This document shows, piece after piece, positions 6,865-27,800 of a DNA stretch of 64,000 nt. The translations under genes and the position numbers were made by a program. The stretch is from Calditrichaceae bacterium (GTDB lineage Bacteria > Calditrichota > Calditrichia > Calditrichales > JBFXGD01). The notes under the pieces were generated by a model. It saw only the letters and a list, made by a program, of their open reading frames with translations, ran no database searches and had not been told where the DNA came from. Position 1 is the stretch's first letter; each line of letters opens with the position of its first letter. The DNA is taken from the NCBI GenBank assembly GCA_050173015.1, contig JBFXLE010000009.1:98913-162912 (forward strand), in the 5' to 3' direction.

Positions 6865-7130
6865 AGACTCAGGGGTGGAAAGTATTCTGCCACAAGCATA
6901 GCAAATATTTTAAAAAAATCAGCTCAAAAAGCAGGAATAACAAAAACGATAACGCCGCCTACGCGGCGTTCTTGTTTTGCGACGCGGTTGCTTGCGCAGG
7001 GTAGGGATTTAAGGTATATTCAGGAGTAGTTAGGTCAAAATAGTCCCGGGAAGACTGAACTGCACCCGTTTCGAATAAGTCTATTGATTGAATAAGGAAT
7101 TCTGTTGATGATATTTTTGAAAAGGATTAG
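6865..7130 (+). pseudogene. 3' vestige of a tyrosine recombinase (integrase) gene, reading towards the cassette array
   Basis: The frame starting at 6865 reads ...GGKYSATSIANILKKSAQKAGITKTITPPTRRSCFATRLLAQGRDLRYIQE*LGQNSPGKTELH. After a frame shift it continues PVSNKSID*IRNSVDDIFEKD*. This parallels the box II C-terminus of Xer/integrase proteins (HTLRHSFATHLLE.G.DLRYIQELLGH...TTEIYTHVSNK...). It contains stops, has lost the His/Arg positions, and the catalytic Tyr codon is deleted. About three quarters of the gene is missing upstream. Confidence 0.7.
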
Positions 7131-7220
7131 TTAATTGTAAAAAAAATATATAAACAATGGTTCATACACCGCCAATTTGGGGGGATAAGAACAATGGGAT
7201 ATATACGAACGTTATGGGCA
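6951..7220 (+). repeat. Scaffold repeat copy 1: integrase vestige, hairpin, then GTT core (attI-like junction)
   Basis: About 270 bp that aligns with 11399-11669 and 20268-20540. It starts with the perfect hairpin AACGCCGC-ctac-GCGGCGTT followed by cttgtttt. It ends with the hairpin aatggttc..ccgccaatttgggggg..gaacaat and then GTTATGG at 7211. Confidence 0.85.
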
Positions 7221-7342
7221 AGGCAATGAAAGAAAACGCAATGGGAGTAATATTGTCAGGAAATAGAAAGTTGGAGACTAAAAATAGCTAATATAGATGA
7301 ATGTTTTGAGAAAATAAAAATAGATTCTAAAGAGAAAATATT

Positions 7343-7849
7343 ATGAGTATATACACAGATAAAACATATGTTGCTTTTGATGCTGATAATGATATCCACT
7401 ACTACAGATTGATGCAAGCTTGGAAAAAAAATGATAATTCTTCATTTAACTTTTATGATGCTCACGATTTGAATAATTTGATGTCTTGGTCTTCAGAAGA
7501 AACAATAAAAGCGAGACTTGCTGAAAGAATGAAAAACTCAAAAGTCTTTATTTTACTTGTAGGAAATAACACAAAATTTCTATACAAATTTGTTCGATGG
7601 GAAATTGATCAAGCTTTAAAAAGAGAAAAACCTATTATAGTTGTTAACTTAAATAAAAAGAGAAGCAGGGATACCGAACGATGTCCTGCTATTTTAAATA
7701 GTGAATTAGCGGTTCATATAAGTTTTAATCAAAAGATAATTGAATACGCAATAAATAATTGGCCTAGCTCTGAGGAGTATTACCGTAAGAACAATGAAAA
7801 AGGAGATTATTATTACAAAGATTCTGTTTATAAAGAATTAGGAATATGA
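7343..7849 (+). CDS. thsB: ThsB-like TIR domain protein (DUF1863/MTH538 TIR-like), type II Thoeris
   Basis: 168 aa. KTYVAFDADND...SKVFILLVGNNTKF..FVRWEIDQALKREKPIIVVNL matches the DUF1863 TIR-like pattern, including the conserved WEI glutamate. Its stop overlaps the next start (ATGA). Confidence 0.7.
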   Translation: MSIYTDKTYVAFDADNDIHYYRLMQAWKKNDNSSFNFYDAHDLNNLMSWSSEETIKARLAERMKNSKVFILLVGNNTKFLYKFVRWEIDQALKREKPIIVVNLNKKRSRDTERCPAILNSELAVHISFNQKIIEYAINNWPSSEEYYRKNNEKGDYYYKDSVYKELGI

Positions 7850-8751
7850 AAATGGGTATTTACAGATGGTTGTCGAAATATAAATCTATCCTTACAGATT
7901 TGATGTCTGGTATAGGCCTTTTTTGGCTATTTGTTGAAATAGCAAGTTATTCGACAAATGGACAAATTGACAAATACACGAAAAGCATAGCTTTTTTCTT
8001 AGTAGGGTTTGTATTAATCATTATTATAGTGCTAATAAAAAATAGGCCTAGAACATCTTTTTCCTATAAATTACGAGATAAAGATAATTTCATAGAAGTT
8101 AAAGTAGGTGATGCTTTTGATAATAATGGAGCTTTAATAATTCCATTCAATAATTATCTTGATGTATCTCTCGGTGGTAATGTAAAAAAGGCTAATAGTC
8201 TGCAAAACAAACTTATAAAACAATATTATTTTGATAAAGAAGAACATTTAGTTCAAGATATTTTAAAAAAAACAAATCTAACTGCACCATTTGATATTGG
8301 TACGACTGTAGAAATTGAACAAAAAGGTAAAAGTTTTTTTCTACTAGTTAATTCTCATAAAAAAGAAAATAACCGAGTTGTATCGACAGTTGATGACTTC
8401 TTATTGAGTTTATCGAAGGTTTGGGATTTCATTGCTTTGGAATCCGGAAGAAAAAGTATAGTAACAATTCCAATAATAAGTACAAATCACGGCAGAATAA
8501 CAGACTTAAACAGAATGAATGCGATAAAAGAAATTATTAATAGCTACGTTGAGGCTTCAAAGTTTCTAAATATTGCAGATAAATTGATAATCAGCATTTT
8601 TCCAGACGATATAAATAAAGGAAATATTAAACTTGATGAAGTAGATGAATATTTAAAGTTTCAGTGTAATCATTATAGAAAAGTTCATTTTTCACCTAAA
8701 CTAGAAGGTAAAGAAGTAAGTCCTTCAGTTACAAAGGGTATTAATAATTAA
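7846..8751 (+). CDS. thsA: ThsA-like effector: two N-terminal TM helices plus a Macro-like domain (type II Thoeris)
   Basis: 301 aa. Two hydrophobic helices (GIGLFWLFVEIASY and IAFFLVGFVLIIIIVLI) are followed by IEVKVGDAFDNNGALIIPFNN, which resembles the Macro-domain start (GDIT...AIVNAAN). It is translationally coupled to the TIR gene. Confidence 0.6.
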   Translation: MKMGIYRWLSKYKSILTDLMSGIGLFWLFVEIASYSTNGQIDKYTKSIAFFLVGFVLIIIIVLIKNRPRTSFSYKLRDKDNFIEVKVGDAFDNNGALIIPFNNYLDVSLGGNVKKANSLQNKLIKQYYFDKEEHLVQDILKKTNLTAPFDIGTTVEIEQKGKSFFLLVNSHKKENNRVVSTVDDFLLSLSKVWDFIALESGRKSIVTIPIISTNHGRITDLNRMNAIKEIINSYVEASKFLNIADKLIISIFPDDINKGNIKLDEVDEYLKFQCNHYRKVHFSPKLEGKEVSPSVTKGINN

Positions 8752-8811
8752 TTACAAGAATAATAGGAAATACAATAGGAAATTTTAATTAAGGAAATTA
8801 AGAAGCCCAGC

Positions 8812-8942
8812 CCATAACAATGCATATACTTTATGGCGGGTTCCGTTATGAAAATGAGTATTTTAGTTTCAAATATAAATCAGTGTGGACAGAAAGATTT
8901 GTCTTCCAAAGTCCGCCACAAAGCATATGCTTCCCGTTATGC
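8812..8942 (+). repeat. attC-like site 1
   Basis: The left arm cATAACaatgcatatactttatggcgg pairs with the right arm ccgccacaaagcatatgcttcccGTTATgc. It is an imperfect inverted repeat with a bulge and about 75 bp of variable centre. Confidence 0.65.
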
Positions 8943-8967: not shown

Positions 8968-9825
8968 ATGATTATAATAAATGACAAGTCAATAGAGAAA
9001 CTCAGAGACCTGATAAATGAAGAAACTGAATATCGGTCAGGTCCGAAACTCATCGAGTTTTTTAAAGACTTGGGCTTCAATGACTCTTATGGTCAAGGAT
9101 TTCCTTCTCGTTGGAAATATACTGATGATCGCCTTCGCAAAATTAACGGTAAACCAGAATTAGATAAGTGCATCAGAAAATTATTCAATCCAGTTAATTT
9201 CATTGGCAAAACTTCTGAACTTGATAACCACATCAAAAATCTGAATCAATATTTAGCTTTTGATAAATGGCAGGTAGTTCGTAATGGTACAGAAATAACT
9301 TTCAAAAAGAAAGATAAGGTTGAACTGCATGATGATTATGCAGAACTGAAAGCAGATGAATTTTTAGATAAAGAATTTGATGATATTTCAATAGATGCTC
9401 TAGGTCTTGATTCTATAGTTTCAGAAGTTCTCAAAATTCGTTTTGTAGAAATAAAGAATTGTTTTGCAGCAAAAGCACATTTGTCGGTCATTTTTCTTTC
9501 AGGCAGTAGTCTTGAAGGAATCCTACTAGGAATTGCTTTGAAGTCACCTACGGAATTCAACCAAGCTAAATCTGCACCTAAAGACAAGGAAGGCAAAGTC
9601 AAACAATTTCCTGATTGGACTTTGAGCCAACTAATTGACGTTACGTTTGAAGTTGGTCTCATCAAGGATGATGTGAAAAAATTTAGTCATGCTCTTCGAG
9701 ACTTCAGAAACTACATTCACCCATATCAGCAAGTAAGCTCGGGATTTAATCCTGATCACCATACAGCAAAAATTTGCTTTCAAGTATTGAAGGCAGGAGT
9801 ATTTCAACTATCAAAAAACAAATAA
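8968..9825 (+). CDS. Possible HEPN-domain protein (Abi-like RNase candidate) with an uncharacterized N-terminal domain
   Basis: 285 aa. The C-terminal helical region contains SHALRDFRNYIHPYQQ, an R-x6-H arrangement compatible with the HEPN Rx4-6H motif. The N-terminus (EYRSGPKLIEFFKDLGFNDSYGQGFPSRWKYT) is reminiscent of N-terminal domains of Abi/HEPN proteins. No search was run. Confidence 0.4.
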   Translation: MIIINDKSIEKLRDLINEETEYRSGPKLIEFFKDLGFNDSYGQGFPSRWKYTDDRLRKINGKPELDKCIRKLFNPVNFIGKTSELDNHIKNLNQYLAFDKWQVVRNGTEITFKKKDKVELHDDYAELKADEFLDKEFDDISIDALGLDSIVSEVLKIRFVEIKNCFAAKAHLSVIFLSGSSLEGILLGIALKSPTEFNQAKSAPKDKEGKVKQFPDWTLSQLIDVTFEVGLIKDDVKKFSHALRDFRNYIHPYQQVSSGFNPDHHTAKICFQVLKAGVFQLSKNK

Positions 9826-10164
9826 ATGGATACTACACAATTTAAAAACGGCTATTTCATTGAGAGAGTTTATCAACCAATCTCAGAAACTGAATTCAAG
9901 TGTCGACTAATAGTTAAATCAAAGGCGAATAATCAAGAAATTACAGGAATAGAGACTAAAATAAATACCGTTGAGATTGGTCAGGGATTAGCAGACTCAC
10001 AATTTAGCGTTAATCCAATAAGTTGGGAGAGATATTTGAACCAGACAATTACAATGTTATTCAACATGTTGATGCTTCGTCTGAATATTACCGACTTGCA
10101 TAATGTTGACGGAGAAGATAAAATTTCTGAATTCTTTGACGAAAATCCGTTTCACCAAAATTAA
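9826..10164 (+). CDS. Hypothetical protein, partner of the putative HEPN protein
   Basis: 112 aa. Its ATG directly abuts the upstream TAA (TAAATG). It lies in the same cassette, between attC-1 and attC-2. I recognise no motif. Confidence 0.5.
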   Translation: MDTTQFKNGYFIERVYQPISETEFKCRLIVKSKANNQEITGIETKINTVEIGQGLADSQFSVNPISWERYLNQTITMLFNMLMLRLNITDLHNVDGEDKISEFFDENPFHQN

Positions 10165-10174
10165 AAAAGCCAGT

Positions 10175-10305
10175 GCCTAACATCGGCTATAGCAAATGCG
10201 GGCTAAAGTGCTATAATGAAAGTAATTACACATAATAAACCAACTGCTAGTCGGACAAGTAAGTACCTTGAAACCCCGCACTTTCCATAGCCATGACCGT
10301 TAGCT
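10175..10305 (+). repeat. attC-like site 2
   Basis: GCCTAACatcggctatagcaaatgcgggc pairs with ccccgcactttccatagccatgaccGTTAGCt. GCCTAAC/GTTAGC is the textbook inverse-core/core pair. Confidence 0.7.
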
Positions 10306-10345: not shown

Positions 10346-11230
10346 ATGATTTTAGACTATTTAAATAAAACATTTAATAACAGAGAAATCGTATTGATTT
10401 CCTATTTGACAATTTTCATTATATGGACACTTACACAGAAAAATATTAGACAGTCCATAGTGTCTGTGATTAAAGCATTTATGGCATGGAAGATACTTGT
10501 TTCAATATTTGTGTTGTTACTATATATTGCATTGATTGCTTTTGGATTATTTAAAATTGGACTTTGGGATAAATCCATGATTAAAGATACTGTTTATTGG
10601 ACTTTTGGGGTCGGATTCATTATTATGATGAATTTTGACAAAGCATTGAAGGAAGAACACTATTTTAAGAACCTTGTCAAAGAAAATTTTAAAGTCCTTA
10701 TAATCATTGAATTTATAGTTGGAATTTATGTTTTTGGTATCATCACTGAATTTATTTTAATGCCATTTGTGATTCTATTTTCAATGTTATTAGGATACAC
10801 TGAAGTTTATAAAGAGCATGGACAAGTTCGCAAATTTTTAAATGGAATCTTTGGCATCATAGGTACGATTTATTTAATTTATTCCGGTTATCATATTTAC
10901 TCTGATTTTACTGGATTTGCAACTCTGGGGAATCTTAAAACATTTTTATTCCCTTTAATAATGTTTGTTCTATTTTTACCATTTGCATATTCCTTTGCAC
11001 TATTGGCTCATTACGAGAGCTTATTCGTTCGATTAGGTTTTTTCCTTAAAGACAAAAAATTGAGAAGATTCGCTAAGTGGAGAATATTATTGTCAGTAAA
11101 TTTTAGCATTTTAAGATTAAAACGAATAACACCTGGAATGTTATTTAGTGACTGTTCTACTAGAGAAGATATAAAAAATGAGATAAAAAATAAAATAAAC
11201 CCAGCAGCTAACACACAATATAGCCAATAA
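10346..11230 (+). CDS. Polytopic membrane protein, unknown function (single-gene cassette)
   Basis: 294 aa with about 7-8 hydrophobic segments (for example IVLISYLTIFIIWTL, ILVSIFVLLLYIALIAFGLF, FILMPFVILFSMLLGY). Its last codons overlap the inverse core of attC-3. Confidence 0.55.
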   Translation: MILDYLNKTFNNREIVLISYLTIFIIWTLTQKNIRQSIVSVIKAFMAWKILVSIFVLLLYIALIAFGLFKIGLWDKSMIKDTVYWTFGVGFIIMMNFDKALKEEHYFKNLVKENFKVLIIIEFIVGIYVFGIITEFILMPFVILFSMLLGYTEVYKEHGQVRKFLNGIFGIIGTIYLIYSGYHIYSDFTGFATLGNLKTFLFPLIMFVLFLPFAYSFALLAHYESLFVRLGFFLKDKKLRRFAKWRILLSVNFSILRLKRITPGMLFSDCSTREDIKNEIKNKINPAANTQYSQ

Positions 11231-11340
11231 GGGTTTCAGTGGTATGCAAAGGGTTGTAGTGTAGCCCGCTCCAACTTTTCGTGTAACTTGATAGGAAATC
11301 ACCCGCAATCCCTTACTGGCCATATTGTCAAGCGTTAGCT
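11207..11340 (+). repeat. attC-like site 3 (subtype Y)
   Basis: GCTAACacacaatatagccaataaggg pairs with cccttactggccatattgtcaagcGTTAGCt. It shares the gcaatcccttac right arm and the gtaacttgata centre with the sites at 20082 and 28024. Confidence 0.7.
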
Positions 11341-11669
11341 CCAAGGCTAAAAAATAGAAACAAAAAGAATAAAATATTTGCCAAAAGGATGAAAATAGAA
11401 CGCCGCCTATGCGGCGTTATTGTTTTGCGACGCGGTTGCTTGCGCAGGGTACGGATTTAAGATATATTCAGGAGTAGTTATGTCATATTAGTCCCGGGAC
11501 GACTGAACTGCACACGTCTCAAATAAGTCAATTGATTGAATAAGGAATTCTGTTGATGATATTTTTGAAAGGGATTAGTTAATCGTAAAAAAAATATATA
11601 AACAATTGTTCATATACCGCTGATTTGGGTGGATAAGAACAATAACATATACACGCACGTTAGGTTGCA
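11341..11669 (+). repeat. Scaffold repeat copy 2: leader, integrase vestige, hairpin, GTT core
   Basis: Starts immediately after the attC-3 core. It translates as TPPMRRYCFATRLLAQGTDLRYIQE*. It carries the hairpin AACGCCGC-ctat-GCGGCGTT followed by attgtttt, and ends GTTAGGT at 11659, 25 bp before the next ATG. Confidence 0.85.
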
Positions 11670-13149: not shown

Positions 13150-13227
13150 CCACCGCACAAATGGCATATTTGGTTTTTGCCGACGCACAGCCAAACGCTG
13201 AAAAAACCAAAAGAGCCATTTCTTGCC
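13150..13227 (+). repeat. IR-B1: structured inverted repeat of about 75 bp forming the 5' leader of hsdR
   Basis: The arms aaatggcatatttggttttt and aaaaaccaaaagagccattt are 17/20 complementary around a spacer of about 23 nt (gccgacgcacagccaaacgctg). It is homologous to 21722-21795 through to the start codon. Confidence 0.75.
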
Positions 13228-13251
13228 ATCTCACGACTGAAAGATAATGAT

Positions 13252-16098
13252 ATGACAACATATAAAAATCAAAATCCTGAACAAATAGCCAGAGACAAAA
13301 TTGACAAAATGTTAATTGAAGCTGGTTGGATTGTTCAATCTAAAAATGAAGTTGACTTGGGTGCAGGCAGAGGTGTTGCGTTGAGAGAATACCAAACGGA
13401 AACAAAATTTGCGGATTATGTGCTGTTTGTTGACAAAAACCCTGTTGGAATTATTGAGGCAAAAAAAGAAGACGAAGGACATAAACTAACCGTAGCGGAA
13501 GACCAAGCCTCTGAATATGCCAAAGCAAAACTAAAATATTTGGATAACGACCCATTGCCTTTTGTTTTTGAGAGTACCGGAACAATAACCCGTTTTAGAG
13601 ATACACGAGACCCAAAACCAAGAGGGCGACATATTTTTTGGTTTTACCGTCCCGAAACATTGGCGGAATGGCTACAAAAAGATAAAAGTTTAAGAGGTAG
13701 ATTATTAGATATTCCGCAATTAAATGAGACTGGGCTTCGCCCTGCTCAAATTAAGGCGATTAATAACCTTGAACAATCTTTTAAAAAGAACAAGCCAAAA
13801 GCTTTAATACAAATGGCTACCGGAGCAGGTAAAACTTTTACTGCCTGTACTTTTGTGTATCGCTTATTGGAACACGCCAAAGCCAAACGGATTTTATTTT
13901 TGGTTGACACCAAAAACTTAGGAGAACAAGCAGAACAGGAGTTTATGGCTTTTCAGCCCAACGACAGCAATCGCAAATTCACAGAATTGTATAATGTACA
14001 GCGTCTTACTTCAAGCTACATAGCAAGCGATAGTCAGGTTTGTATCTCTACCATTCAACGGATGTATGCCATTTTAAAAGGTGAAGAACTAGACGAAGGA
14101 GCCGAAGATACAAACCCGAACGAATCGACCTGGATGGAACAACAGCGAAATAAAAAACAGGCAATGCCTGTGGAATATTCTGCCAAAGTACCCATTGAAC
14201 AATTCGATTTTATTGTAATTGATGAATGCCACCGCTCTATTTACAATCTTTGGAAACAAGTGTTGGATTATTTCGATGCTTTCCTTATCGGCTTAACTGC
14301 CACACCCGATAAGCGAACTTTTGGCTTTTTTGAGGAAAATGTAGTGAGCGAATATACCTATGAAGAATCTGTGTTGGATGGTGTAAATGTTCCTTACGAT
14401 GTGTACAATATTGAAACTGAAATTTCGCAAAAAGGCAGTGTGATAAAAGCAGGTTGGTTTGTGGACAGACGAGATAAGCTCACCCGAAAAACGCGTTGGC
14501 AACAAGAAGATGAAGACACCGAATATTTGAAAAACGATTTGGATAAAAAGGTCGTTAATCCAAGCCAGATACGGAATATTATTCGCCAATACAAAAAAGC
14601 ATTGGAAACCGAAATTTTCCCGAACAGAAAAGACGAAAATGGAGAATACGAAGTTCCTAAAACACTGGTTTTTGCAAAAACTGACAGCCACGCGGATGAT
14701 ATAATCAAAATCATTCGTAAAGAATTTGACGAAGGCGATGATTTCTGCAAAAAACTGACTTATAAAATAAAAGAAGACCCAAAATCGGTGTTAAACCGTT
14801 TTCGGAATTCATATCATCCCCGCATTGCGGTTACGGTAGATATGATTGCAACGGGAACCGATGTAAAACCTTTGGAAGTGTTGTTGTTTATGCGTGATGT
14901 TAAAAGCACCAACTACTTTGAACAAATGAAGGGTAGAGGAACACGCACCATTAACAAAGATGCTTTTCAGGCAAACAACACCAATGTAAAAGGGGCTTGC
15001 AAAACCCATTTTATTATTGTGGATGCAGTTGGCGTAACAAAGTCGAAGAAAACCGACAGCCGGCCTTTGGAACGCAAACCAACTGTAGCCTTAAAAGATT
15101 TATTGGGAGCGGTAACAATGGGAGTTACCGAAGAAGATTTGTTTCTTTCGCTTGCAAATCGTTTGATACGATTAGAAAAAGAAATTACCGACAAGGAAAA
15201 AGATAAATTACTGGAACATTCCAAAGGCAAAAATCTGAAACAAATCAGCAAAGAATTATTATCGGCTTTTGATAAAGATGAAATTGAAAACAGAGCACAG
15301 GAAAAAATTGAAAAATTCTGTAAAGACGCCCTACAGGGCGTCTCTTCTGCTGCCGATTTATCTCCGGCACAAATAGAATCTTTCCGACAGGACGCACAGA
15401 AAGAATTGATTAATACCGCCGCTTCTACTTTTAACGGAAAGCTGAACGATTATATTGAAAAAGTGCGTATGGAACACGAGCAAATTATCGACAGCCACAA
15501 TATCGACACCGTAACAAAATCGGAATGGGACACCGCTTCGGTGGATAAAGCCAAAGAAACTGTAAAAGATTTTAACGAATACCTCGAAGCCAATCAGGAC
15601 GAGATAAAAGCATTGACCATTTTTTACAAACAACCCTACAACCGCCGAAACATTACCTTTAAAATGATTAAAGATGTGTTTGATAAACTGAAATTGGATA
15701 AACCCACCCTTGCCCCCGATTATGTTTGGGCGGCATACAGCCAATTGGAAGAGGTAAAAAGCAAACAACCGATTGACGAACTCACCGCGTTAATTTCGTT
15801 AATTCGCAGGGCTTGCGGAATTGACAGCGAGTTGAAAGCTTTTGATTCCACCATTGACGAAAATTTCAAAAACTGGATTTTCAAACAAAACGCAGGCAAG
15901 CACAACCGCTTTACAACCGAACAAATGGACTGGCTGCGAGAACTGAAAAATCACGTAGTAAATTCGTATCACATAGAAATTGAAGACCTCGATTATACAC
16001 CCTTTGATGAAAAAGGAGGACGTGGCAAAATGTACCAACTCTTTGGTGCCGAAATGAACGATATTATTAATGAACTTAACGAGGTATTAGCAGCATAA
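13252..16098 (+). CDS. hsdR: Type I restriction enzyme R subunit (HsdR), with an EcoEI-type C-terminal domain
   Basis: The N-terminus KIDKMLIEAGWIV...ADYVLFVD..PVGIIEAKKE is the HsdR_N nuclease fold. It also has helicase motif I (MATGAGKTFT), DECH (IVIDECHRS) and TATP, plus a C-terminal tail like EcoEI_R_C. I prefer the ATG at 13252 over the track start at 13177, which lies inside IR-B1. Confidence 0.85.
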   Translation: MTTYKNQNPEQIARDKIDKMLIEAGWIVQSKNEVDLGAGRGVALREYQTETKFADYVLFVDKNPVGIIEAKKEDEGHKLTVAEDQASEYAKAKLKYLDNDPLPFVFESTGTITRFRDTRDPKPRGRHIFWFYRPETLAEWLQKDKSLRGRLLDIPQLNETGLRPAQIKAINNLEQSFKKNKPKALIQMATGAGKTFTACTFVYRLLEHAKAKRILFLVDTKNLGEQAEQEFMAFQPNDSNRKFTELYNVQRLTSSYIASDSQVCISTIQRMYAILKGEELDEGAEDTNPNESTWMEQQRNKKQAMPVEYSAKVPIEQFDFIVIDECHRSIYNLWKQVLDYFDAFLIGLTATPDKRTFGFFEENVVSEYTYEESVLDGVNVPYDVYNIETEISQKGSVIKAGWFVDRRDKLTRKTRWQQEDEDTEYLKNDLDKKVVNPSQIRNIIRQYKKALETEIFPNRKDENGEYEVPKTLVFAKTDSHADDIIKIIRKEFDEGDDFCKKLTYKIKEDPKSVLNRFRNSYHPRIAVTVDMIATGTDVKPLEVLLFMRDVKSTNYFEQMKGRGTRTINKDAFQANNTNVKGACKTHFIIVDAVGVTKSKKTDSRPLERKPTVALKDLLGAVTMGVTEEDLFLSLANRLIRLEKEITDKEKDKLLEHSKGKNLKQISKELLSAFDKDEIENRAQEKIEKFCKDALQGVSSAADLSPAQIESFRQDAQKELINTAASTFNGKLNDYIEKVRMEHEQIIDSHNIDTVTKSEWDTASVDKAKETVKDFNEYLEANQDEIKALTIFYKQPYNRRNITFKMIKDVFDKLKLDKPTLAPDYVWAAYSQLEEVKSKQPIDELTALISLIRRACGIDSELKAFDSTIDENFKNWIFKQNAGKHNRFTTEQMDWLRELKNHVVNSYHIEIEDLDYTPFDEKGGRGKMYQLFGAEMNDIINELNEVLAA

Positions 16099-17636
16099 TG
16101 AGAGAAGATTGGATTGACGTTGAATTAAAAGATGTTTGCCTAAGTTCAAAGGGAAAGAAACCAAGTGTTTTAGAAAAAAATAATTCTGAAACTGCTAATG
16201 TGCCATATATAAATATCAAAGCTTTTGAGAAAGGTATAATAGAAGAATACACTGATGGTGAAAAATGCAATTTATGTGAAGATGGTGACTTGTTAATGGT
16301 TTGGGATGGTGCAAGGGCTGGGCTTACAGGTAAAGCTAAAAAAGGTGCTGTTGGTTCAACACTAATGAGAATTGAAGAAGTAAAAGGTATTGAAAAGGAA
16401 TATTTATATTATTTTCTTTTATCACTTTTTACAAAGATTAATACAAATCCAAGAGGTGTTGGTATTCCACATGTTGAACCACGAATACTATGGTTGTCAA
16501 AAGTATTAATTGTTAGCAGTCCCATCCAACGAGCAATAGTATCCAAAATCGAAGCCCTGTTTTCCGATTTGGACAACGGCATCGCCAATTTAAAAAAAGC
16601 ACAGGAGCAATTAAAAATATACCGTCAAGCGGTTTTGAAAAAGGCCTTTGAGGGCGAACTCACAAAAGAATGGCGTGAAAAGATTGTACAGACGCCCAAT
16701 TTGGGCGTATCAACGCCCCTGCCAACAGCCGAAGAACTGCTAAAACAAATAAAAGAAGAACGCCAAAACCACTACAACCAACAAATTGAAGACTGGAAAA
16801 AAGCGGTTAAGGAATGGGAGAAAAATGGGAAAGTTGGGAAGAAGCCAAGTAAGCCTAAGCAGCAAAAAGAATTGCCACCTTTAAATGAGGAAGAATTGAA
16901 TGAGCTGCCGAAATTGCCAAAGTCAATGGTATGGACACAACTTGGAAATGTGGTTTGGTCTGTAAAAGATGGACCTCATTTTAGCCCTAAATATTCAAAA
17001 ACTGGTATACCCTTTATCTCAGGTGGGAATATTAGACCAGAAAAAATTGACTTTGAAAAAGTAAAATATATTTCAGAAGAGCTTCATAAGGAACTAAGTC
17101 GAAGATGTAAACCACAATTAGATGACATTCTATACACCAAAGGCGGAACAACTGGAATTGCAAAAGTTAATACATATAAATTTGATTTTAATGTTTGGGT
17201 GCATGTAGCAGTATTAAGACCAATCCAAATGATTTTACCATTATATTTACAACATGTTTTAAATTCTTCTCATTGTTATAAACAATCGCAAGAATATACA
17301 CATGGGGTTGGTAATCAAGATTTAGGTTTAACAAGAATGATTTTAATCACACTGCCTATTTGTTGTAAAGAAGAACAAACCCAAATCGTCCAAGAAATAG
17401 AAAGCCGTTTATCGGTTTGCGACAAAGTAGAGCAAAGCATAACCGAAAGCCTTGAAAAAGCCGAAGCCCTTCGCCAAAGCATTCTTAAAAAAGCATTTGA
17501 GGGCAAATTATTAAGCGAAGCTGAAATAGAACAATGCAAAAAGGCAGCCGATTACGAACCTGCGGCAAAATTGTTGGAACGAATAAAACAGGAAAAAATA
17601 AATAAGGATAATAATAAAAAAACAAAATCAAAATAA
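16098..17636 (+). CDS. hsdS: Type I restriction-modification specificity subunit (HsdS)
   Basis: 512 aa. Two target-recognition halves are each followed by the conserved helix LKKAFEG(E/K)L (at about aa 180 and about aa 470). TAATG overlap with hsdR. The central linker carries a REP-like insertion. Confidence 0.85.
   Translation: MREDWIDVELKDVCLSSKGKKPSVLEKNNSETANVPYINIKAFEKGIIEEYTDGEKCNLCEDGDLLMVWDGARAGLTGKAKKGAVGSTLMRIEEVKGIEKEYLYYFLLSLFTKINTNPRGVGIPHVEPRILWLSKVLIVSSPIQRAIVSKIEALFSDLDNGIANLKKAQEQLKIYRQAVLKKAFEGELTKEWREKIVQTPNLGVSTPLPTAEELLKQIKEERQNHYNQQIEDWKKAVKEWEKNGKVGKKPSKPKQQKELPPLNEEELNELPKLPKSMVWTQLGNVVWSVKDGPHFSPKYSKTGIPFISGGNIRPEKIDFEKVKYISEELHKELSRRCKPQLDDILYTKGGTTGIAKVNTYKFDFNVWVHVAVLRPIQMILPLYLQHVLNSSHCYKQSQEYTHGVGNQDLGLTRMILITLPICCKEEQTQIVQEIESRLSVCDKVEQSITESLEKAEALRQSILKKAFEGKLLSEAEIEQCKKAADYEPAAKLLERIKQEKINKDNNKKTKSK
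16691..16708. repeat. REP-like palindrome a (partial), in frame inside hsdS
   Basis: GACGCCCAATTTGGGCGT, translated as QTPNLGVS in the HsdS central linker. Confidence 0.8.
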
Positions 17637-17687
17637 TTGTGAAACGCGTTGGACGTATTTGTCGCATTTGACGCGTTGGACGCATTG

Positions 17688-17716
17688 GTAGAGACGCCCA
17701 ATTTGGGCGTCTCTAC
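17688..17716. repeat. REP-like palindrome b (29 nt)
   Basis: GTAGAGACGCCCAATTTGGGCGTCTCTAC. It lies between hsdS and the RAYT gene, flanked by cgttggacg motifs and gatccc/gacgac short repeats. Confidence 0.85.
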
Positions 17717-17788
17717 GACGACGATCCCTACGATCCCGATCCCGACGACGACAATATCGTTCACGTTCACAATAACGAAAACAAAAAT

Positions 17789-18400
17789 ATGCCCGATAAA
17801 TTTCAAAACAAATACCGCATACCATCGGCACGATTGCAAACATGGGATTATGGAAGCAATGGAACCTATTTTATAACCATTTGCACCCAAAACCGTGAAC
17901 ATTATTTTGGTGAAATTACAGACGGTAATATGATATTATCCGAAATAGGAATTTTGGCGAACAAATATTGGAATGAAATACCAGAACATTTTCCATTTGT
18001 CAATTTGGATGAATTTGTGGTAATGCCCAACCACGTGCATGGGATTATTATCATTGATAAACCCGATGATGGACGGGATGATGGGCGGGACGTTGGACGG
18101 GACGTTGGACGGGACGTAGAGACGCCCAAATTGGGCGTCTCTACCAATACCAATACCAATACCAATACCAATCATCAAACCGCCACGGCATCCGAAAAAT
18201 GGAAACCGGCATCATTGGGGGTAATTATCAACCAATATAAACGAATGGCAACCATTAAATCGCGTAAAATCCACGCTGATTTTGGTTGGCAATCCCGTTT
18301 TTACGACCAGATCATACGAAACAACGAATCGTATGAAAAAATCAGAAATTATATTGTCAACAACCCATTGAAATGGGAAGAAGATAAATTTTACAATTAA
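17789..18400 (+). CDS. IS200/IS605-family Y1 (HUH) transposase of the REP-associated (RAYT) type
   Basis: 203 aa. NKYRIPSARLQTWDYGSNGTYFITICTQNREHYFG, the HUH motif VVMPNHVHGIIII, and the C-terminal catalytic-Tyr region GWQSRFYDQIIRN. It is interrupted in frame by a low-complexity/REP insert of about 35 aa. Confidence 0.8.
   Translation: MPDKFQNKYRIPSARLQTWDYGSNGTYFITICTQNREHYFGEITDGNMILSEIGILANKYWNEIPEHFPFVNLDEFVVMPNHVHGIIIIDKPDDGRDDGRDVGRDVGRDVETPKLGVSTNTNTNTNTNHQTATASEKWKPASLGVIINQYKRMATIKSRKIHADFGWQSRFYDQIIRNNESYEKIRNYIVNNPLKWEEDKFYN
18071..18172 (+). repeat. Composite in-frame insert in the RAYT gene: 12-mer x4, REP hairpin, hexamer x4.7
   Basis: GGACGGGATGAT/GGGCGGGACGTT/GGACGGGACGTT/GGACGGGACGTA at 18071-18118, the REP palindrome at 18116-18144, and (CAATAC)n at 18145-18172. 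Together these translate as GRDDGRDVGRDVGRDVETPKLGVSTNTNTNTNTN. Confidence 0.9.
18116..18144. repeat. REP-like palindrome c (29 nt), in frame inside the RAYT ORF
   Basis: GTAGAGACGCCCAAATTGGGCGTCTCTAC. Identical to palindrome b except for the flipped centre (aaatt versus aattt). Confidence 0.85.
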
Positions 18401-18415
18401 ATTGAAAGAAATAAT

Positions 18416-19936
18416 ATGTCAGAAAGTGCAATAGTATCAAAAGTGTGGAATTTCGCCAATGTTCTTAGAGACGATGGAGTGGGTTATGGTGATTATTTAG
18501 AGCAAATCACCTATTTGCTTTTCCTAAAAATGGCAGACGAACTTAACAAACCGCCCTACAATAAAGGTTTAAAATTTCCGAAACTCAAAAATGCTGAGGG
18601 TGTTGAATTGCCCGATGCCGAAACCTGCGACTGGCAAACGCTGTCGCAAAAACGTGGTTTGGAATTGGAAAATTTTTACAACCAAATGCTACGAAGTTTG
18701 GGAAGCGAAAAAGGAACGTTGGGGCAAATTTTCGTAAAAAGTCAAAACAAAATACAAGACCCATCAAAACTCTTAAAAATCATTGATATGATTGATAAAG
18801 AGCAATGGAGCTTAATGGGAACCGATGTAAAAGGGAAAATTTACGAAGGTCTTTTAGAGAAAAATGCCGAAGACACCAAAAGCGGTGCAGGGCAATATTT
18901 TACGCCTCGTTCGCTCATCAAAACAATGGTGGCTTGTGTTCGTCCCAAACCCATGAAAACCATTATAGACCCTGCTTGTGGCACTGGCGGTTTCTTTTTG
19001 GCAGCTTACGATTATATCAAAAGTCAGAATTTAGACCAGGAAGAAAAGGAGTTTTTGAAAAACAAAACTTTCTACGGAAACGAAATTGTAGCCAATACAC
19101 GCAGAATGTGTTTGATGAACATGTTTTTGCACAACATTGGCGAAATTGATGGCGAAACACTCATTTCTTCAGCTGATGCTTTGGTTTCGGACAATGGCAT
19201 ACGCTACGATTATGTGCTGGCAAATCCGCCTTTTGGTAAAAAAAGCAGTATGACCATTACCAACGAAGAGGGCAAACTGGAAAAGCAGGATTATACTATC
19301 AATCGTCAGGATTTTGTGGCTACCACAGCCAACAAGCAACTAAACTTTTTGCAACACATAAAAACGCTTTTAAAACTCACAGGCGAAGCAGCCGTTGTAC
19401 TTCCCGATAATGTTTTGTTTGAGGGCGGAGCAGGCGAAACGGTTCGGAAAGAATTGATGAAAACAACCGAATTGCATACAATTTTAAGACTTCCAACAGG
19501 TATATTTTACGCACAAGGTGTAAAAGCAAATGTTTTGTTTTTCGACAACAAACCAGCTTCAAAAGAGGCTTGGACAAAAGATGTTTGGATTTATGATTAT
19601 CGAAGTAACATAAGCCACACATTAAAGAAAAACCCAATGCGATTTGAGCATCTACAGGAATTCGTAAAACTCTACAATCCCGAAAACCGAAATAAAAGAA
19701 CAGAAACGTGGAGCGAAACAAATCCCGAAGGCAGATGGAGAAAGTATAGTTATGCTGAAATCATTGAACGAGATAAAACCAACTTGGATATATTTTGGAT
19801 TAAAGACAAAAGCTTAACCGACTTAGATAATTTACCCGACCCCGATATTTTGGCAAACGAAATCATTGAAAACATTGAAGCCGGATTAAATAGTTTTAAA
19901 GAAATAATGGAAACAATAAACGGAGATGAAAGCTAA
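18416..19936 (+). CDS. hsdM: Type I restriction-modification N6-adenine DNA methyltransferase (HsdM)
   Basis: 506 aa with an HsdM_N-like N-terminus, the SAM motif IIDPACGTGGFF and the catalytic motif LANPPFG. Confidence 0.9.
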   Translation: MSESAIVSKVWNFANVLRDDGVGYGDYLEQITYLLFLKMADELNKPPYNKGLKFPKLKNAEGVELPDAETCDWQTLSQKRGLELENFYNQMLRSLGSEKGTLGQIFVKSQNKIQDPSKLLKIIDMIDKEQWSLMGTDVKGKIYEGLLEKNAEDTKSGAGQYFTPRSLIKTMVACVRPKPMKTIIDPACGTGGFFLAAYDYIKSQNLDQEEKEFLKNKTFYGNEIVANTRRMCLMNMFLHNIGEIDGETLISSADALVSDNGIRYDYVLANPPFGKKSSMTITNEEGKLEKQDYTINRQDFVATTANKQLNFLQHIKTLLKLTGEAAVVLPDNVLFEGGAGETVRKELMKTTELHTILRLPTGIFYAQGVKANVLFFDNKPASKEAWTKDVWIYDYRSNISHTLKKNPMRFEHLQEFVKLYNPENRNKRTETWSETNPEGRWRKYSYAEIIERDKTNLDIFWIKDKSLTDLDNLPDPDILANEIIENIEAGLNSFKEIMETINGDES

Positions 19937-20209: not shown

Positions 20210-20540
20210 CCAAGCCTAAAAAATAGAAACAACAAGAATAAAATATTTGCCAAAAGGATGAAAATAGAACGCCGCCTATGCGGCGTTATTGTTTTGCAAC
20301 GCGGTTGCTTGCACAGGATAGGGATTTAAGGTATATTCAGGAGTAGTTAGGTCATAATCGTTCCGGGACTACTGAAATTTGCGCACATCTCAAAAAAGTC
20401 TATTGATAAAAACAGTAATCCTACGGATGATATCTTTGAAAGGGATTAGATAATTGTAAAAGAAATATATAAACAATTGTTCATACACCGCCAATTTGGG
20501 CGGATAAGAACAATAGAATATATACGAACGTTGTGTGGCA
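20210..20540 (+). repeat. Scaffold repeat copy 3: leader, integrase vestige, hairpin, GTT core
   Basis: Same order as copy 2. It has the hairpin AACGCCGC-ctat-GCGGCGTT, the integrase-like frame FATRLLAQDRDLRYIQE*, the terminal hairpin ATTGTTC-ataca-CCGCC-aatttg-GGCGG-ataa-GAACAAT, and then GTTGTGT at 20530. Confidence 0.85.
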
Positions 20541-21795: not shown

Positions 21796-21825
21796 TTGTC
21801 AAACGCACATAGACTAAAACTAAAA

Positions 21826-24800
21826 ATGAATGAAGAAATAGTATCAGCAAGTGGAGAAAGAGCAGCAATGGGAGGCTATTTGCCTCAATTTGATGAGTTC
21901 GCTTGGTTTGTCTATTTGAATCTAATAAATAAAAAGCTTGAATGGATACGAATAGCAGACTCCAAGGCTGAAAAACTAGATGATATACAGTATTCTACTC
22001 ATTCAGAAATTCATGCATACCAAGTAAAATGGACTATCGCTGATGCAAATATATCATTTGCAAATTTTACGGATTTGTTTCCTCTTATCACCTCTAGTTG
22101 GAAGAGTTTAAAAACAGCTAATCCTAGCAAAAAAATAATTCCTCATTTAATCACTAACAAACCTATTTCCTCCCACGACAGCTTAAAGGTAGGCGATACA
22201 AAAATCGGTTCATTTCAAGACTTCGTCTCAGAAGTTTGGGTAAAGCTAAAATCAAATCAATCAATTGATGATAAGTGGAAACAAGTTCTTGAGGAACTCA
22301 AAAAGAGTTCAAAACTCAATGATTCTGAATTTGGAGAATTTATCATCTCTTTTGATTTTCAACCAGACTATAAACAAAAACAGTTTAGTATAGGAAATAT
22401 TAAATACTCTAAAGAAGACGAAGACCTTCAACAGATCAGTCGATATATAGTACAAAAAGTTGCTAGCCCGAAAAGAGTCGTTGAATTTACTCGCCAAGAA
22501 ATTATTAAAGAATTAGGTTGGTCTGATAGATTTAAAACAATTTTTAATCACGAGTTAATAGTCGATAGACAAAGATACCAGCCGATTCAATCGACAATTG
22601 ACCTGTTAAATTCAAAGTTAGAGGAGCATAAAAATGGATACCTGTTTTTGCTAGGTGGCCCAGGTTCTGGAAAATCTACCTTATTGAATCAATGGTCAAA
22701 AGGCCTTAAAACACGAATAATACGATACTACGCCTTTGATTTCGTTAATCCATCTTCACACTTAAACTTTTATGAAAGAGGAAATGCTACCCATCTTTTT
22801 TTCGATTTAGTTTTTCAATTAAAGGAAGCTGGAATATATAAAAGAGACATTCTTCCATATAAAGACTTACTTTTTCTAAAAGATGTATTCAATGAGCAAT
22901 TAAGTGCAATTGGAGAGGACTTTGTGACAAATGGTCAATCGACCATAATATTGATTGATGGTCTAGATCATGTTCCTAGGGAATACAAATCAACAACTAA
23001 TAGTTTCCTACGAGAACTTCCTTTACCATCTTCTCTCCCAAACGGGGTCTTCATCATTTTAGGTAGTCAATCTTATGAACTTGAAGACATTCAACAGGAA
23101 ATTAAAACTGAATTTCAGAAAGGAAATAGAACCATTCAAATTGATCCACTTAAAAAGGAGGAAGTATACAAGTACATTGATAATCTTGATACTTCAATTC
23201 AACTTAATGGTTCTCAAAAGCTGCAAATATTTGAGAAATCAGAAGGACACCCGTTATACCTGTCATACTTAATTGAAAAAATCAATAACGCAGATTCTAT
23301 TAACGATACAATCGAATCTTTTGAAGTTATTGATGGTAGTATTGATAATTATTACAAAAAAATATGGGAGCCTATCCAGAAAGAAGATAGCCAAATTCAA
23401 TTCTTAGGTTTAATTGCGAGAATTAATGGTTTGATCAAACTTCAGTTCATTCAGGAATGGGACTTCCAACCGAGTGTTTTAAAGTCCTTTCGTGAAAAGG
23501 CCAGATTTCTGTTTAATGAAACCGAAAAAACTTTGTCTTTCTTTCATAATTCGTTCAAGCAATTCCTTCTTCATCATACCTCTTTAAATTACTTAACAGA
23601 TGAGTTTGATCCGACAATTAACGTCAATTATCATAGTCAACTTACTGATTATTATGTAAAATCAGAGATTGAAAAATCCTGGAAACAGAATCATCACCTA
23701 TTTCAGGCTAAACAATATGATAAGTTTATTTCAGAAGTTACCCCAAATAGTATTACTGAACAGTTACTTAACTTCAGACCAGCAGAAGAAATTAAGCAGG
23801 ATGCAAAATTGGGAGTTGAAATAGCAAGACAGAATAAGGACATTAATACTCTGGTAAGATATCTGTTTTCATTAGCAGAAATTGAAAGAAGATTATTCAA
23901 TATTGATCCCACATCCTTTATAGAAGAACTTTTGTACCTAAATAAATACGACTTAGCAAGGGATTATCTAAGAACTGGCAACACCCTCCATTGTAGCGAA
24001 TCGTACGCATTTAAAGCATGTCGATTGTTTATTGAATCTGGGCACAAATCAGAAGGAGCAACTTTATACAATTTGGCTTATCCAGAAATCATTACAGATT
24101 CCGGGATACATATTGATGATTCTCACAGATATGAAGAAATAAGAGATTCTTTAGAAGAATGGATTTATACTTCTCCCTATTTTGAAGCAACCGAGAATAT
24201 TTTCTCAATAATTGAGAAAATTCAATTCTCAGGTAGCATACGGAAAAACAGGTTTGAAGAAGAAGAATCTGATTTACTTTTAAGGTTACTCTCTAATCTT
24301 GGTTATAGTTTAGTGGATCAAAACAAGTGGGATGATTTTAATAAAGTCATAGAAAAAATAGATTCGAGGTCTTCAAGAGGAAGGAATTCTCTTTTCCAAC
24401 TTATAAAGTACGCTATCGAGCAATGCCTTGACTTAAAAGATAGTAGTCGAGTGAATGAATATCTGTCATTTTTAACCACTCATTTCACAAAAGAGAAGAC
24501 AAAATCCATTGGCAAAATATTCATTGCAGATTTAGTCTATAAAGTCACTAGAGACCTAAATGAAACATATAGTTGGATTAAGGAAGTTGAGCAACCATCT
24601 AATGTGGGTAAAGACCAGCTAGGATATGATGATTCGTTAGACGCCTTTCTTCCATTAATCAAACTTAACAAGTTACTTAACCTATGTGGAAAAGGAGTTT
24701 CGATTACGTCTGCAATTCCATCTGTTGCGAAAGGTACTGATGAAGAAGTTTTAGTGGAGTTTGAACGAATGTTATGTATTACCACTCAAATTCTAGCCGA

Positions 24801-27800
24801 GGGCATTCTTCAAACACCAATGCCAGGTGATCCTATTAAAAGAGTATTTCCAATTGTTCGGTTTTATTACAAAGAAATATCCCACCGAAACAGCTATTGG
24901 TATAAGCTGACACAAGCAAAAGGCCAATATTATGATTTTTTGATTTCGGCGGTGTCTGAATTGGGTACTGAAAAATTAGAATTATTAGGAGATTATTTGT
25001 TCAGTGAGTTTAAGAATATTCCAAAATATTGGAGTACAAGTGTCCAGCGGAAAATCATTAAATCCCTCTTGAATAAAGGGTTTAATGCTAAAAAAGCAGT
25101 AATAAAGTTGAGATCCATAGAGGATTCCATGTTGGAAGGTCACGATATAGATGGCCGTATAACCGAATGCTTGGCCCACTCAAAAGTATGGTTCATTTTA
25201 GGCAAGCTAGATGAAGGTGAAATATGGCTCAAACAGGCTATTCAAGAATCTATTGGAGTAGGATATAGAAAAGATTATCAATTTAGTACATGGATTGAAT
25301 GGTTAAGAAAAATAAACCATAAAGACCCATCAAAAGCTACTGAAAGAATAAAGTGGTTCTTATCTCATTTAAAACATATTAAAGAAACCACGGAGGGAAG
25401 GGCTTATTGGAATGCTTCTGAAGAATTATTAGAAGTCGCATATGAACACAATCTGGAAGATGGCTTAGAGCAGGCTATTTGGCAATTAAAGAACGATCTA
25501 ATAGACTTTAAAGATTCAATTGCTCTTTTCATAAAATATTTTATGATAAAAACAAAAAGTAAAGAAGAGTTCAAAAGTATTGTTCAACTATATAGTGATT
25601 TATATCTGCTTCTTGCTGAATCTGCCAATTCTTCCCTGCTCAAATCTATCTTAGAAAAAGGGCATGAAATTTTAAAAGAAGATTTTTTAGTAGAACATGC
25701 TCAAGCCATTATTTCGGCAATAGAAATTAAAGCTTACGAAGAAACCAGACATTACTTACTATCTGAAATTGATAACTTCTATACATCAAAAGGGCTAAAA
25801 GCAGAAGACTATTATTCACGGTTTAATATACCGGCAAAAAGCGAAAGAAATAGTTCATCAACATCTTCTAACACATTGACTTTAAAGACAGATCATGAAA
25901 AGATTGATGAAAGTGAAGTACTAAAACGAGTTACAAATTTTGAAGATTTCAAAAAAATCATTCAAGAAGAAGATCAGGCAAATTCATTTTTTAATTGGTC
26001 AAAGGTTATAGATAAAATAGCTCCATTATTGTCTTCAAGTCAAATTGAAGAAATCACCAAACTGGCTAGAATAGGAAGGAGAGAGTCAGATTTCTATGCT
26101 AAATTAAGTGAGGCTGCCTTGGAGCTAGAAAACACAGAACTCGCAACTAGTTTAGCCAATAAAAGTATTGAGTTATCGAGCGAATCGGGGTGGGTAAAAT
26201 ATTATGATGGAGGAACAAGAATCAATGCATTTAATGCACTAAAACGAATCAATCCTGCAATATCATCTAATAAGGCATTTGAAGTATTTGCTCATGATAT
26301 AGTAACCAGTAATTATCCAAGTTCATATATCGAACATCTTGAAGACATCGTTCCACTTTTAACAGAAAATTATGTTGAGGAAGAGCTTTGGCATGAAATA
26401 TATGGTTACCTGCAAAGACTGATGTCGAATAGTAAACCGGTTGAGGATTTACCTGTTCTTCCATCATTAAATCGTCCAATCATAGAAACCTTAGTCGATT
26501 ATATGGTGTATTTATCACAGAGTCCCGTCTCAATAATAAAGGAGCAATCTTTACAGCTATTGGCAAAATATATAAATCAAGATAATGACTATGCTTTGAC
26601 TCAATTACTGAATGGACGTTTAGATGATTACTCAAGTATGAACGTGATGATGAAATTAACTGCGTTCAACTCCCCCAAAGTCCATTTGCTTAAATCAAAG
26701 ATCAATAGTTTAGCTATATCAAATGACTATCAATTAAGAGAAAGCTCAAAACAAATACTTTCCTCAATTCAAGAAGAAATTCCAACTCCCAAAAACATCG
26801 AATTATCTAAAGTATACTCTTTCCATATTCCAGAAACTGAAAAACCAGATTTTAGAAAAGAGATTGACCCTTATTTCCCAGAAGTTGATACTAATGACCC
26901 CCGTGATCTGATACGACCATTTGAATTTTTAATCAAAATCTTATCTGAGGAGTCTGGGATTAATGAATCTAACCTTATATATAGAGCCTACTCGATCATG
27001 AAAGAAATTGGTCGAGAGGAGGAATGGTCCGTTGAGTATGAAAAAAAGCTTAGAAATCATTTAGAAGAAATTTACCTAAGATACTCTTACCCTAGACCAA
27101 GGGTAATTGCGGCTCGAAGAGCCATAATGCATGTCACCAATGAATTAATAGATTCTGGAACAATTGATGATGAGCGAATTCAGAAACCTTTTATATCACA
27201 TGATTATGCGGTTCTGTTTTTTAATGAAATAGCAAAACCTGAATTCATTCAAACTATTAAAGAGAGAGATTTTGGAGGAGTTGGCAATGATTGGTTAGAT
27301 CGAATAGGTGAATCAGAAAGATTAAACGAATCAATATTAGACTATAATGATAACTTCAAGATTATTGCAGAATATAATCAAGTTAAAAATTTAGATTGGG
27401 GTTCTCCTACTGAAGAATACATGTACCAAATTGCGGTTAATGAGGAGTTGGATGAAGAAGATAATTACATTTTTGGCTCTGTTTTTCACCAATTAAGCAG
27501 TAACTATCATGATTTGAGAAGTGGTGGACATTTTATTGTTGTAGTCAGGGATCATAGATTTGACCAATTTGATCTGAAATCTAAGTGGATTGCAATTAAC
27601 CCTGTTTTGGCTAGATACTTAGGATGGGAGCCTGAAACAACCAAATTATTTGCTTGGAAAAACTCGCAAGGTGAATTGATGGCGGAATCAATTTATTGGT
27701 CAAATGGAAATATTAACATGACACCTCGTAAGGATGGAGAAGTCGGGGAAGGGTGGTTTGTTATTGTTTCCAAAGATGGATTAGAGAAGATAAAATCTAT

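Follow-up and report, generated by a model that had tools for sequence, protein, structure and literature searches.

Type II Thoeris systems that pair a TIR-like ThsB with a ThsA bearing transmembrane (TM) helices and a Macro domain have been described from two hosts that are relevant here. BaThs of Bacillus amyloliquefaciens Y2 pairs one Tyr-type TIR protein, ThsB, with one ThsA that joins two TM helices to a Macro domain and contacts the signal histidine-ADP-ribose (His-ADPR) through N133, S194 and R240, the last touching the histidine carboxylate (Sabonis et al., 10.1101/2024.01.03.573942). The TM-Macro Thoeris system of Escherichia coli CFT073 consists of EcThsA, EcThsB1 and EcThsB2, and EcThsB2 represents ThsB 'subfamily 9', which makes up 73.8% of the ThsBs accompanying TM-Macro ThsA and is defined by a Tyr hydrogen-bonded to the catalytic Glu and by a C-terminal tail of ~20 residues (Shi et al. 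2024, PMC11204291). This Tyr-containing class occurs exclusively with TM-Macro ThsA (PMC11204291). A 64,000-nucleotide stretch of a contig from a Calditrichaceae metagenome-assembled genome (GenBank assembly GCA_050173015.1, contig JBFXLE010000009.1, positions 98,913 to 162,912; hereafter the window) holds a thsB-thsA gene pair at 7,343 to 8,751 that very probably makes up a complete, minimal type II Thoeris system against phages, packaged as a single cassette. Its defence activity would follow by analogy with the published homologues.

Defence genes in integron cassettes were described in 2024-2025, as BRiCs in mobile integrons (Kieffer et al., 10.1101/2024.07.02.601719) and in sedentary chromosomal integrons (Darracq et al., 10.1101/2024.07.02.601686). 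As in those systems, a compact defence operon stands between recombination sites in the window, and the array acts as a defence island. Those integrons are of class 1 or Vibrio type with a canonical IntI, whereas an integrase is absent from the window and the platform there has a shorter recombinase of a different type. Among the mobile cassettes, the two-gene brc22/brc23 'Tragantia' has a ThsB homologue first and a TM protein of ~300 aa second (10.1101/2024.07.02.601719), a layout that the window pair shares. Darracq et al. make no mention of Thoeris, TIR or Macro (10.1101/2024.07.02.601686), and the literature searched yielded no paper that explicitly describes an integron cassette with a TM-Macro Thoeris. 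The cassette and its parts are as follows.

7212..8936, + strand: the cassette, consisting of a 131-nt leader, thsB, thsA and attC, with G|TT at both ends; ~1.7 kb.
7343..7849, + strand: thsB, predicted TIR-like sensor and signal synthase of 168 aa, of the EcThsB2 'subfamily 9' class.
7846..8751, + strand: thsA, predicted effector of 301 aa (299 aa from the alternative start at 7852), with two N-terminal TM helices and a C-terminal Macro domain at residues ~80-260.
8812..8942, + strand: attC-like site of the Thoeris cassette, a 131-nt imperfect palindrome running from R'' CCATAAC to R' GTTATGC.

ThsB matches the Pfam family ThsB_TIR (PF08937, formerly DUF1863) with 76.5 bits against a cut-off of 21.2 bits, covering profile positions 1-99 of 100, and it matches PADLOC ThsB over its full length (1e-73). 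Residues 4-168 match the crystal structure of EcThsB2 from E. coli CFT073 (PDB 8V6T) with E = 5e-33 and ~45% identity, and the protein is thereby a full-length EcThsB2 homologue. The E. coli system has in addition a second, PH-domain-bearing ThsB1, which is missing from the window and makes the latter a two-gene minimal version. Resemblance to the ThsB of BaThs is lower: the window protein has 168 aa against 195 aa in the solved chain (9UV0), and the similarity reaches only E = 3e-8.

The active site was read from an alignment of the window protein with six homologues from independent genomic contexts and EcThsB2. Glu87, within RWEIDQA (residues 85-91), aligns with the Glu of HEID in EcThsB2 (8V6T) and is the sole invariant Glu, so that alignment and conservation together assign it to the predicted catalytic position. 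Tyr9, within KTYVAF, is likewise invariant across the seven contexts and EcThsB2 and would occupy the position of the active-site Tyr. Between the two lies VFILLVGNNTKF (residues 68-79). The C-terminal tail is Tyr-rich at 156-163, and Y156, Y158 and Y163 are invariant in the same alignment. On these residues ThsB is placed in the Tyr-containing class of EcThsB2 and BaThsB.

ThsA matches the Pfam family ThsA_Macro (PF20016) with 97.8 bits against a cut-off of 25 bits, covering profile positions 1-182 of 183, and matches PADLOC Macro-type ThsA over nearly its full length (1.7e-39). Kyte-Doolittle analysis gives two hydrophobic segments, centred at residue ~24 (1.68) and at 52-60 (up to 2.95), and nothing above 1.05 after residue 80. 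An AlphaFold2 model built from 37 homologues (mean predicted local distance difference test score, pLDDT, 83.5) has helices at 12-36 and 48-65 followed by an alpha/beta domain, which includes VKVGDAFDNNGALIIPFNN at residues 85-103. The PDB sequence matches are four solved ThsA macro domains (8V6Q, 9UUZ, 8R66 and 8V6S), the best of which is EcThsA 8V6Q (E = 5.7e-12). In a Foldseek search of the model against the PDB, the top eight matches are the macro domains of EcThsA, PcThsA and BaThsA (E = 6e-12 to 9e-9; target TM-score 0.69-0.78, with 0.69-0.71 for BaThsA 8R66), and MacroH2A, PARP14 and MacroD-type domains come further down the list.

A sequence-only reading of this DNA had called the first gene a DUF1863-type TIR protein and the second a protein with two N-terminal TM helices and a Macro-like start, together a complete two-gene type II Thoeris mobilised as a single integron cassette. 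The profile searches that it had proposed place both proteins far above the family cut-offs, the fold comparison returns ThsA macro domains first, and the catalytic Glu that it had wanted to see in an alignment is kept; with the PADLOC and structure matches for both proteins, the two-gene assignment is upheld. As a separate observation, a 469-aa protein (P0058) that is 63% identical to the window ThsA has both the ThsA_Macro and the ThsB_TIR Pfam domains. It appears to be a fusion of the two, which would support a functional link between these parts.

The thsB stop and a thsA ATG overlap as ATGA at 7846-7849 (4 nt), as the sequence-only reading had pointed out. The NCBI record, however, starts the gene at a second ATG, 7852, giving a 299-aa protein that is 100% identical, and the AGGA at 7840-7843 lies 8 nt from ATG 7852 and only 2 nt from ATG 7846. 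Because ATG 7852 is the better spaced, the overlap may not be the start that is used, and thsB and thsA either overlap by 4 nt or stand 2 nt apart. The order claimed earlier, thsB and then thsA, is retained together with adjacency in every homologous locus examined. This arrangement, and carriage as a cassette, set the window pair apart from BaThs, as do the hosts, a Calditrichaceae bacterium and a Firmicute, respectively.

The left end of the cassette is defined by a repeated block with the following parts.

6870..7080, + strand: first of three copies of a pseudogene relic of a tyrosine recombinase 3' end, with an in-frame stop and with the catalytic Tyr motif EIYTH changed to ELHPF.
6951..6970, + strand: terminator-like element (GC-rich hairpin plus T-run) that marks the 5' edge of the repeated block, found in all three window copies.
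7139..7213, + strand: attI-like recombination core, ending at the crossover …ACG|TT (G7211 | T7212).

The core of ~75 nt is present in three copies in the window and at 20 external loci (L011-L019 and L023-L033), which were collected by a core-pattern scan of public genomes and metagenomes, making 23 copies. When 12 of the copies are aligned, identity stops exactly after ACGTT in all 12. In the window, a block of ~270 bp made up of the hairpin with its T-run, the recombinase relic and the core is repeated at 6945-7213, 11392-11663 and 20261-20535, and the three blocks are near-identical up to …ACG|TT and unrelated straight after it. Because the copies diverge exactly at the classical integron crossover position, the pattern is the signature of a site-specific recombination junction, and the left boundary at G7211 | T7212 is real. 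The array was assembled by site-specific recombination, and the recombinase gene is now dead in the window.

The sequence-only reading had placed the pair between a GTTATGG core at 7211 and a first attC. Both sites are present, the heptamer itself at 7211-7217, but the motif is uninformative: GTTATGS occurs 12 times in the window against 13.1 expected, with no enrichment. The motif alone is therefore no evidence, and the evidence for the junction comes from the comparison with the other copies. Block copies 2 and 3 start exactly at the GTT of the preceding attC, and thus behave as cassettes of ~325 bp themselves.

The right end of the cassette was located by a search for AAC…GTT combined with an arm-pairing score, which was compared with a control distribution from 150 random 216-nt windows in the non-array half of the window. 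A strict attC regular expression (RYYYAAC…GTTRRRY) was dropped, its sole match being a spurious site inside hsdS. The site at 8812-8942 scores 23 terminal arm pairs; the best of the 150 controls scores 20, and only one control reached 18. Two further sites of the same kind follow it.

10175..10305, + strand: attC-like site of the next cassette, which carries a pair of 285-aa and 112-aa genes.
11206..11340, + strand: attC-like site of the third cassette, with block copy 2 coming directly after it.

These sites are 131-135 nt long and stand right after the cassette open reading frames (ORFs). At 8812-8942 the bottom strand folds with -19.5 kcal/mol and the top strand with -16.1 kcal/mol; the bottom strand is the more stable in all three sites, as it is in the attCs of canonical integrons from the SUP05 clade described below. 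The bottom-strand stems of the three sites are nearly continuous, with ~18-19 bp. Positions that are A·C mismatches on the top strand pair as G·T on the bottom one. The GC content of the cassette is 0.28-0.30 against 0.40-0.45 in the flanks, and it stays low until about 28 kb.

Homologous loci provide an independent view of the cassette ends. The exact 301-aa ThsA was found elsewhere only in two short metagenome contigs, with the same neighbours. The closest relative (L003-L005) shares 89% protein and 82% nucleotide identity, and its homology is confined to window positions 7200-8843, beginning 11 nt before the crossover and running into the attC with none beyond; the 5' part of 8812-8942 is homologous to the attC of L003. 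In L003 and L004 (5350-7090) the pair stands alone between the genes for pyruvate-phosphate dikinase (PPDK) and TauE, with no recombinase and with a degenerate R'' (ATAAT). Either a lone cassette integrated away from any array or a decayed cassette could account for this copy.

Orthologous thsBA pairs with 65% protein identity are found in three arrays of SUP05-clade Gammaproteobacteria, thiotrophic symbionts (L008, L009 and L010), at 71% nucleotide identity over the coding region. In all three the pair begins at the same G|TTATGTGTCAAAG, and three different attCs, of 100, 57 and 58 nt, precede it. L008 and L009 end with the same 103-nt attC and then have different neighbours; the L010 contig stops 46 nt into this attC, and those 46 nt are identical. 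L008 and L010 also include divergently oriented integrases that pass TIGR02249, the NCBI integron-integrase model, with 430 and 442 bits against a cut-off of 265 bits. The pair takes third place in the L008 array and second place in that of L010. Since it occupies differing array positions beside integrases, it is demonstrably a mobile integron cassette in SUP05. Like the window pair, the SUP05 pair is a single cassette with G|TT ends in which thsB precedes thsA and the stop of the one overlaps the start of the other. Unlike it, the SUP05 pair is not the first unit and is accompanied in L008 and L010 by a canonical, divergently oriented IntI, and its leader and attC are unrelated to those of the window (an attC of 103 nt against 131 nt).

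More distant homologues point to other ways of carriage. In L007 a distant thsBA homologue lies beside transposases and a relaxase, with no attC. In L021 (4501-5900) an inserted 61%-identical thsB-thsA separates hsdS from hsdR in a type I restriction-modification (R-M) operon with almost no intergenic space, again with no attC. L022 carries its homologue in a serine-recombinase element, and L020, from Zixibacteria, has one alone among housekeeping genes; no attC site adjoining either homologue rose above the control range of the arm-pairing score. As these distant homologues have no attC sites, cassettes are one of several vehicles for thsBA. A tblastn search with ThsA against 72,556 plasmids returned no integron-borne relative, only eight distant macro-domain proteins (25-34% identity), none of them visibly in an integron. 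No relevant literature was found on SUP05 integrons or Calditrichota integrons.

Several observations weigh against a complete and active Thoeris cassette, and are considered here with the alternatives on which they bear. The first group concerns the identity of the proteins and of their signal. An NCBIfam search with ThsB and ThsA gave no model naming either protein, and the identity of ThsA to the solved ThsA macro domains, that of BaThs included, is only ~20%. The residues of its pocket were mapped through HMMER alignments at this ~20% identity, and their conservation was read from the 37 homologues.

Q120: position of BaThsA N133 (EcThsA N114); nearly invariant.
S170: position of BaThsA S194; nearly invariant.
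R217: position of BaThsA R240; invariant.
D89: position of EcThsA D83; invariant.
D106: position of EcThsA D100; invariant.
D255: position of EcThsA K262; invariant.

Two of the three His-ADPR contacts of BaThsA are thus kept (S170 and R217) and the third is changed conservatively (Q120). Q120 and D255 are the two main pocket changes; there are further ones at T213 (for Ser) and G216 (for Thr), and the ligand loop is STNHGR where EcThsA has GSGITR. Residues 214-217 of this loop, with pLDDT <50, are the sole low-confidence stretch of the ThsA model. Because the contacts are partly kept while the loop, Q120 and D255 differ, the pocket looks recognisably ThsA-type yet not identical.

By analogy with the described systems, ThsB would sense infection and would use NAD+ to make an ADPR-derived signal, most likely His-ADPR. 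This signal would bind the cytoplasmic Macro domain of ThsA; ThsA would oligomerise, its two-helix membrane anchors clustering and damaging the membrane, and the infected cell would die before the phage cycle is completed (abortive infection). The identity of the signal is the main mechanistic uncertainty, because in vitro EcThsB2, the closest solved homologue, showed no NADase activity (PMC11204291) and the pocket here is changed at two positions. It is conceivable, though rather unlikely, that the same architecture works with another signal, made from a substrate other than NAD+ (e.g., a 2'-deoxynucleotide) or with a base other than histidine, and bound by the divergent ThsA pocket. The Tyr-Glu pair of EcThsB2 resembles those of 2'-deoxyribosyltransferases and DNPH1 (PMC11204291), and the low Macro identity and the pocket differences fit this possibility. 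Against it stands that this Tyr-containing active site is shared by the sole ThsB of B. amyloliquefaciens, whose system produces His-ADPR (PMC11204291). R217, the counterpart of the Arg touching the histidine carboxylate, is moreover invariant, and the adenine-side Asp (D89) is kept, as is S170.

The second group concerns the cassette. A tblastn search for an integrase across the 64-kb window found no intact gene, only the three C-terminal pseudogene relics, so that the cassette may no longer be mobilisable here. By IntegronFinder definitions a cluster of attC sites without an integrase is a CALIN (PMC9024848), and the window array would count as such, not as a complete integron. In addition, no extrahelical bases are obvious in the three window attC-like stems, whereas SUP05 attCs have the classic single bulge. 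An intact relative of the relics is found at L016 424-1257 (- strand), where it encodes a 277-aa recombinase to whose C-terminus the relic at 6870-7080 is homologous; this recombinase stays below the TIGR02249 cut-off with 206 bits, split over two stretches of which the better covers model positions 1-175 of 315, and scores 233 bits on NF040815, a XerA-type model whose cut-off of 220 it thus exceeds.

From these points, and from the occurrence of the same gene pair without attC near transposases, inside a type I R-M operon and in a serine-recombinase element, it could be argued that the Thoeris operon simply stands in an ordinary defence island, the palindromes being terminators or REP-like repeats and the core part of an unrelated Xer-type recombinase module. 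This is considered improbable. Against it stand the divergence of 12 of 12 aligned cores exactly at the integron crossover position, palindromes that begin …AAC, end GTT…, measure 131-135 nt, directly follow the cassette ORFs and share a bottom-strand bias, and the start of block copies 2 and 3 exactly at the GTT of an attC. Moreover, the L003 homology ends inside the attC, and the orthologous pair is a cassette in canonical integrons. Of the earlier claim of a single integron cassette, then, the cassette stands on the junction, the attC-like site, the L003 homology limits and the SUP05 orthologue, and the word integron calls for qualification.

The last group concerns expression. A sigma-70 consensus scan upstream of thsB gave 10 sites against 11.5 expected from a shuffled background, and none on the + strand at 6980-7343, although this consensus may not be that of Calditrichota. 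With no promoter above chance and with the terminator-like hairpin at 6951-6970 upstream of thsB, expression of the cassette is uncertain. These points and the dead recombinase would fit a decayed or non-defence relic, unexpressed or serving some other ADPR-linked membrane function unrelated to phage. Such a relic is nonetheless very improbable, as both ORFs are intact, homologues from several phyla with 52-89% identity keep all catalytic and pocket residues invariant (implying purifying selection on thsBA), the neighbours are defence genes and every characterised member of both families is anti-phage.

If the pair is a Thoeris cassette, as preferred here, the nature of the platform that captured it is a further question. 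The relic at 6870-7080 matches Pfam Phage_integrase with E = 1.6e-7 when its stop codon is read as Leu, and matches genuine integron integrases in tblastn with E = 2e-6 to 2e-3. The idea that it is a recently inactivated canonical intI was ruled out: its intact relative is not a canonical IntI, and the relic occurs three times in the array. Intact or near-intact recombinases of the relic type are found in L027 and L025 as well as in L016. The L016-type gene shares the strand of the cassettes and ends with a stop codon ~60-110 nt upstream of the core. Its product probably lacks the IntI-specific insert, because it has 277 aa against 328-347 aa and its TIGR02249 match is split. Among the 20 external core loci, three have an intact or near-intact recombinase, 11 have truncated or internally deleted relics, and six have the core alone. 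Binning assigns their contigs to Calditrichota, Ignavibacteriaceae, Melioribacteraceae and other phyla, but is doubtful for contigs this short.

Tentatively, and with less confidence than the cassette itself commands, the array might be assigned to an undescribed integron-like platform, found mainly on contigs of Calditrichota- or Ignavibacteria-type metagenome-assembled genomes. Such a platform may be characterized by a Xer/XerA-like recombinase of only 277 aa, devoid of the IntI-specific domain and co-oriented with the cassettes, by an attI-like core of ~75 nt ending ACG|TT, by attC-like sites without evident extrahelical bases, and by modules of recombinase relic, terminator-like hairpin and attI that recur like cassettes inside arrays. 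If this is true, the Thoeris cassette would have been captured by a system that is integron-like in outcome but has different site recognition. The recombinase and its attI-like sites are the more novel lead, and may deserve a study of their own.

The Thoeris cassette itself is a well-documented example of established kinds, namely type II Thoeris and defence-carrying cassettes, from the poorly studied phylum Calditrichota. The same operon, at 71% nucleotide identity, has unrelated leaders and attCs in Calditrichota-type arrays and in SUP05 integrons, and also travels without attC. It is thereby a concrete example on which to study how cassettes form and how attCs come to match the host array. 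With one ThsB and ~1.7 kb, the cassette is a compact minimal type II Thoeris that is directly clonable.

The Thoeris cassette is the first unit behind the first attI-like core, and a chromosomal M49 peptidase gene lies upstream. The low-GC array of defence genes spans roughly 21 kb. It includes a type I R-M system at 13177-19936 (hsdR 13177-16098, hsdS 16098-17636 and hsdM 18416-19936) and a 2033-aa protein (21796-27897) with a NACHT/STAND P-loop NTPase domain at residues ~270-460, which is a candidate Avs- or NACHT-type defence gene. As it holds this R-M system and this NTPase besides Thoeris, the array is regarded as a defence island. Several small operons without family assignment are also present.

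Within the R-M region, a 203-aa ORF (17789-18400) contains 12-nt tandem repeats at 18053-18112 and is bracketed by two identical perfect 14-nt palindromes (17688-17716 and 18116-18144). The second cassette (8968-10164) carries the abutting 285-aa and 112-aa genes, which belong to no Pfam family; in PADLOC the pair weakly matches the N-terminus of Stk2 (5e-10), and it contains the motif RDFRNYIH (Rx6H, HEPN-like). The same pair is linked to thsBA also in the metagenome contigs L001 and L002.

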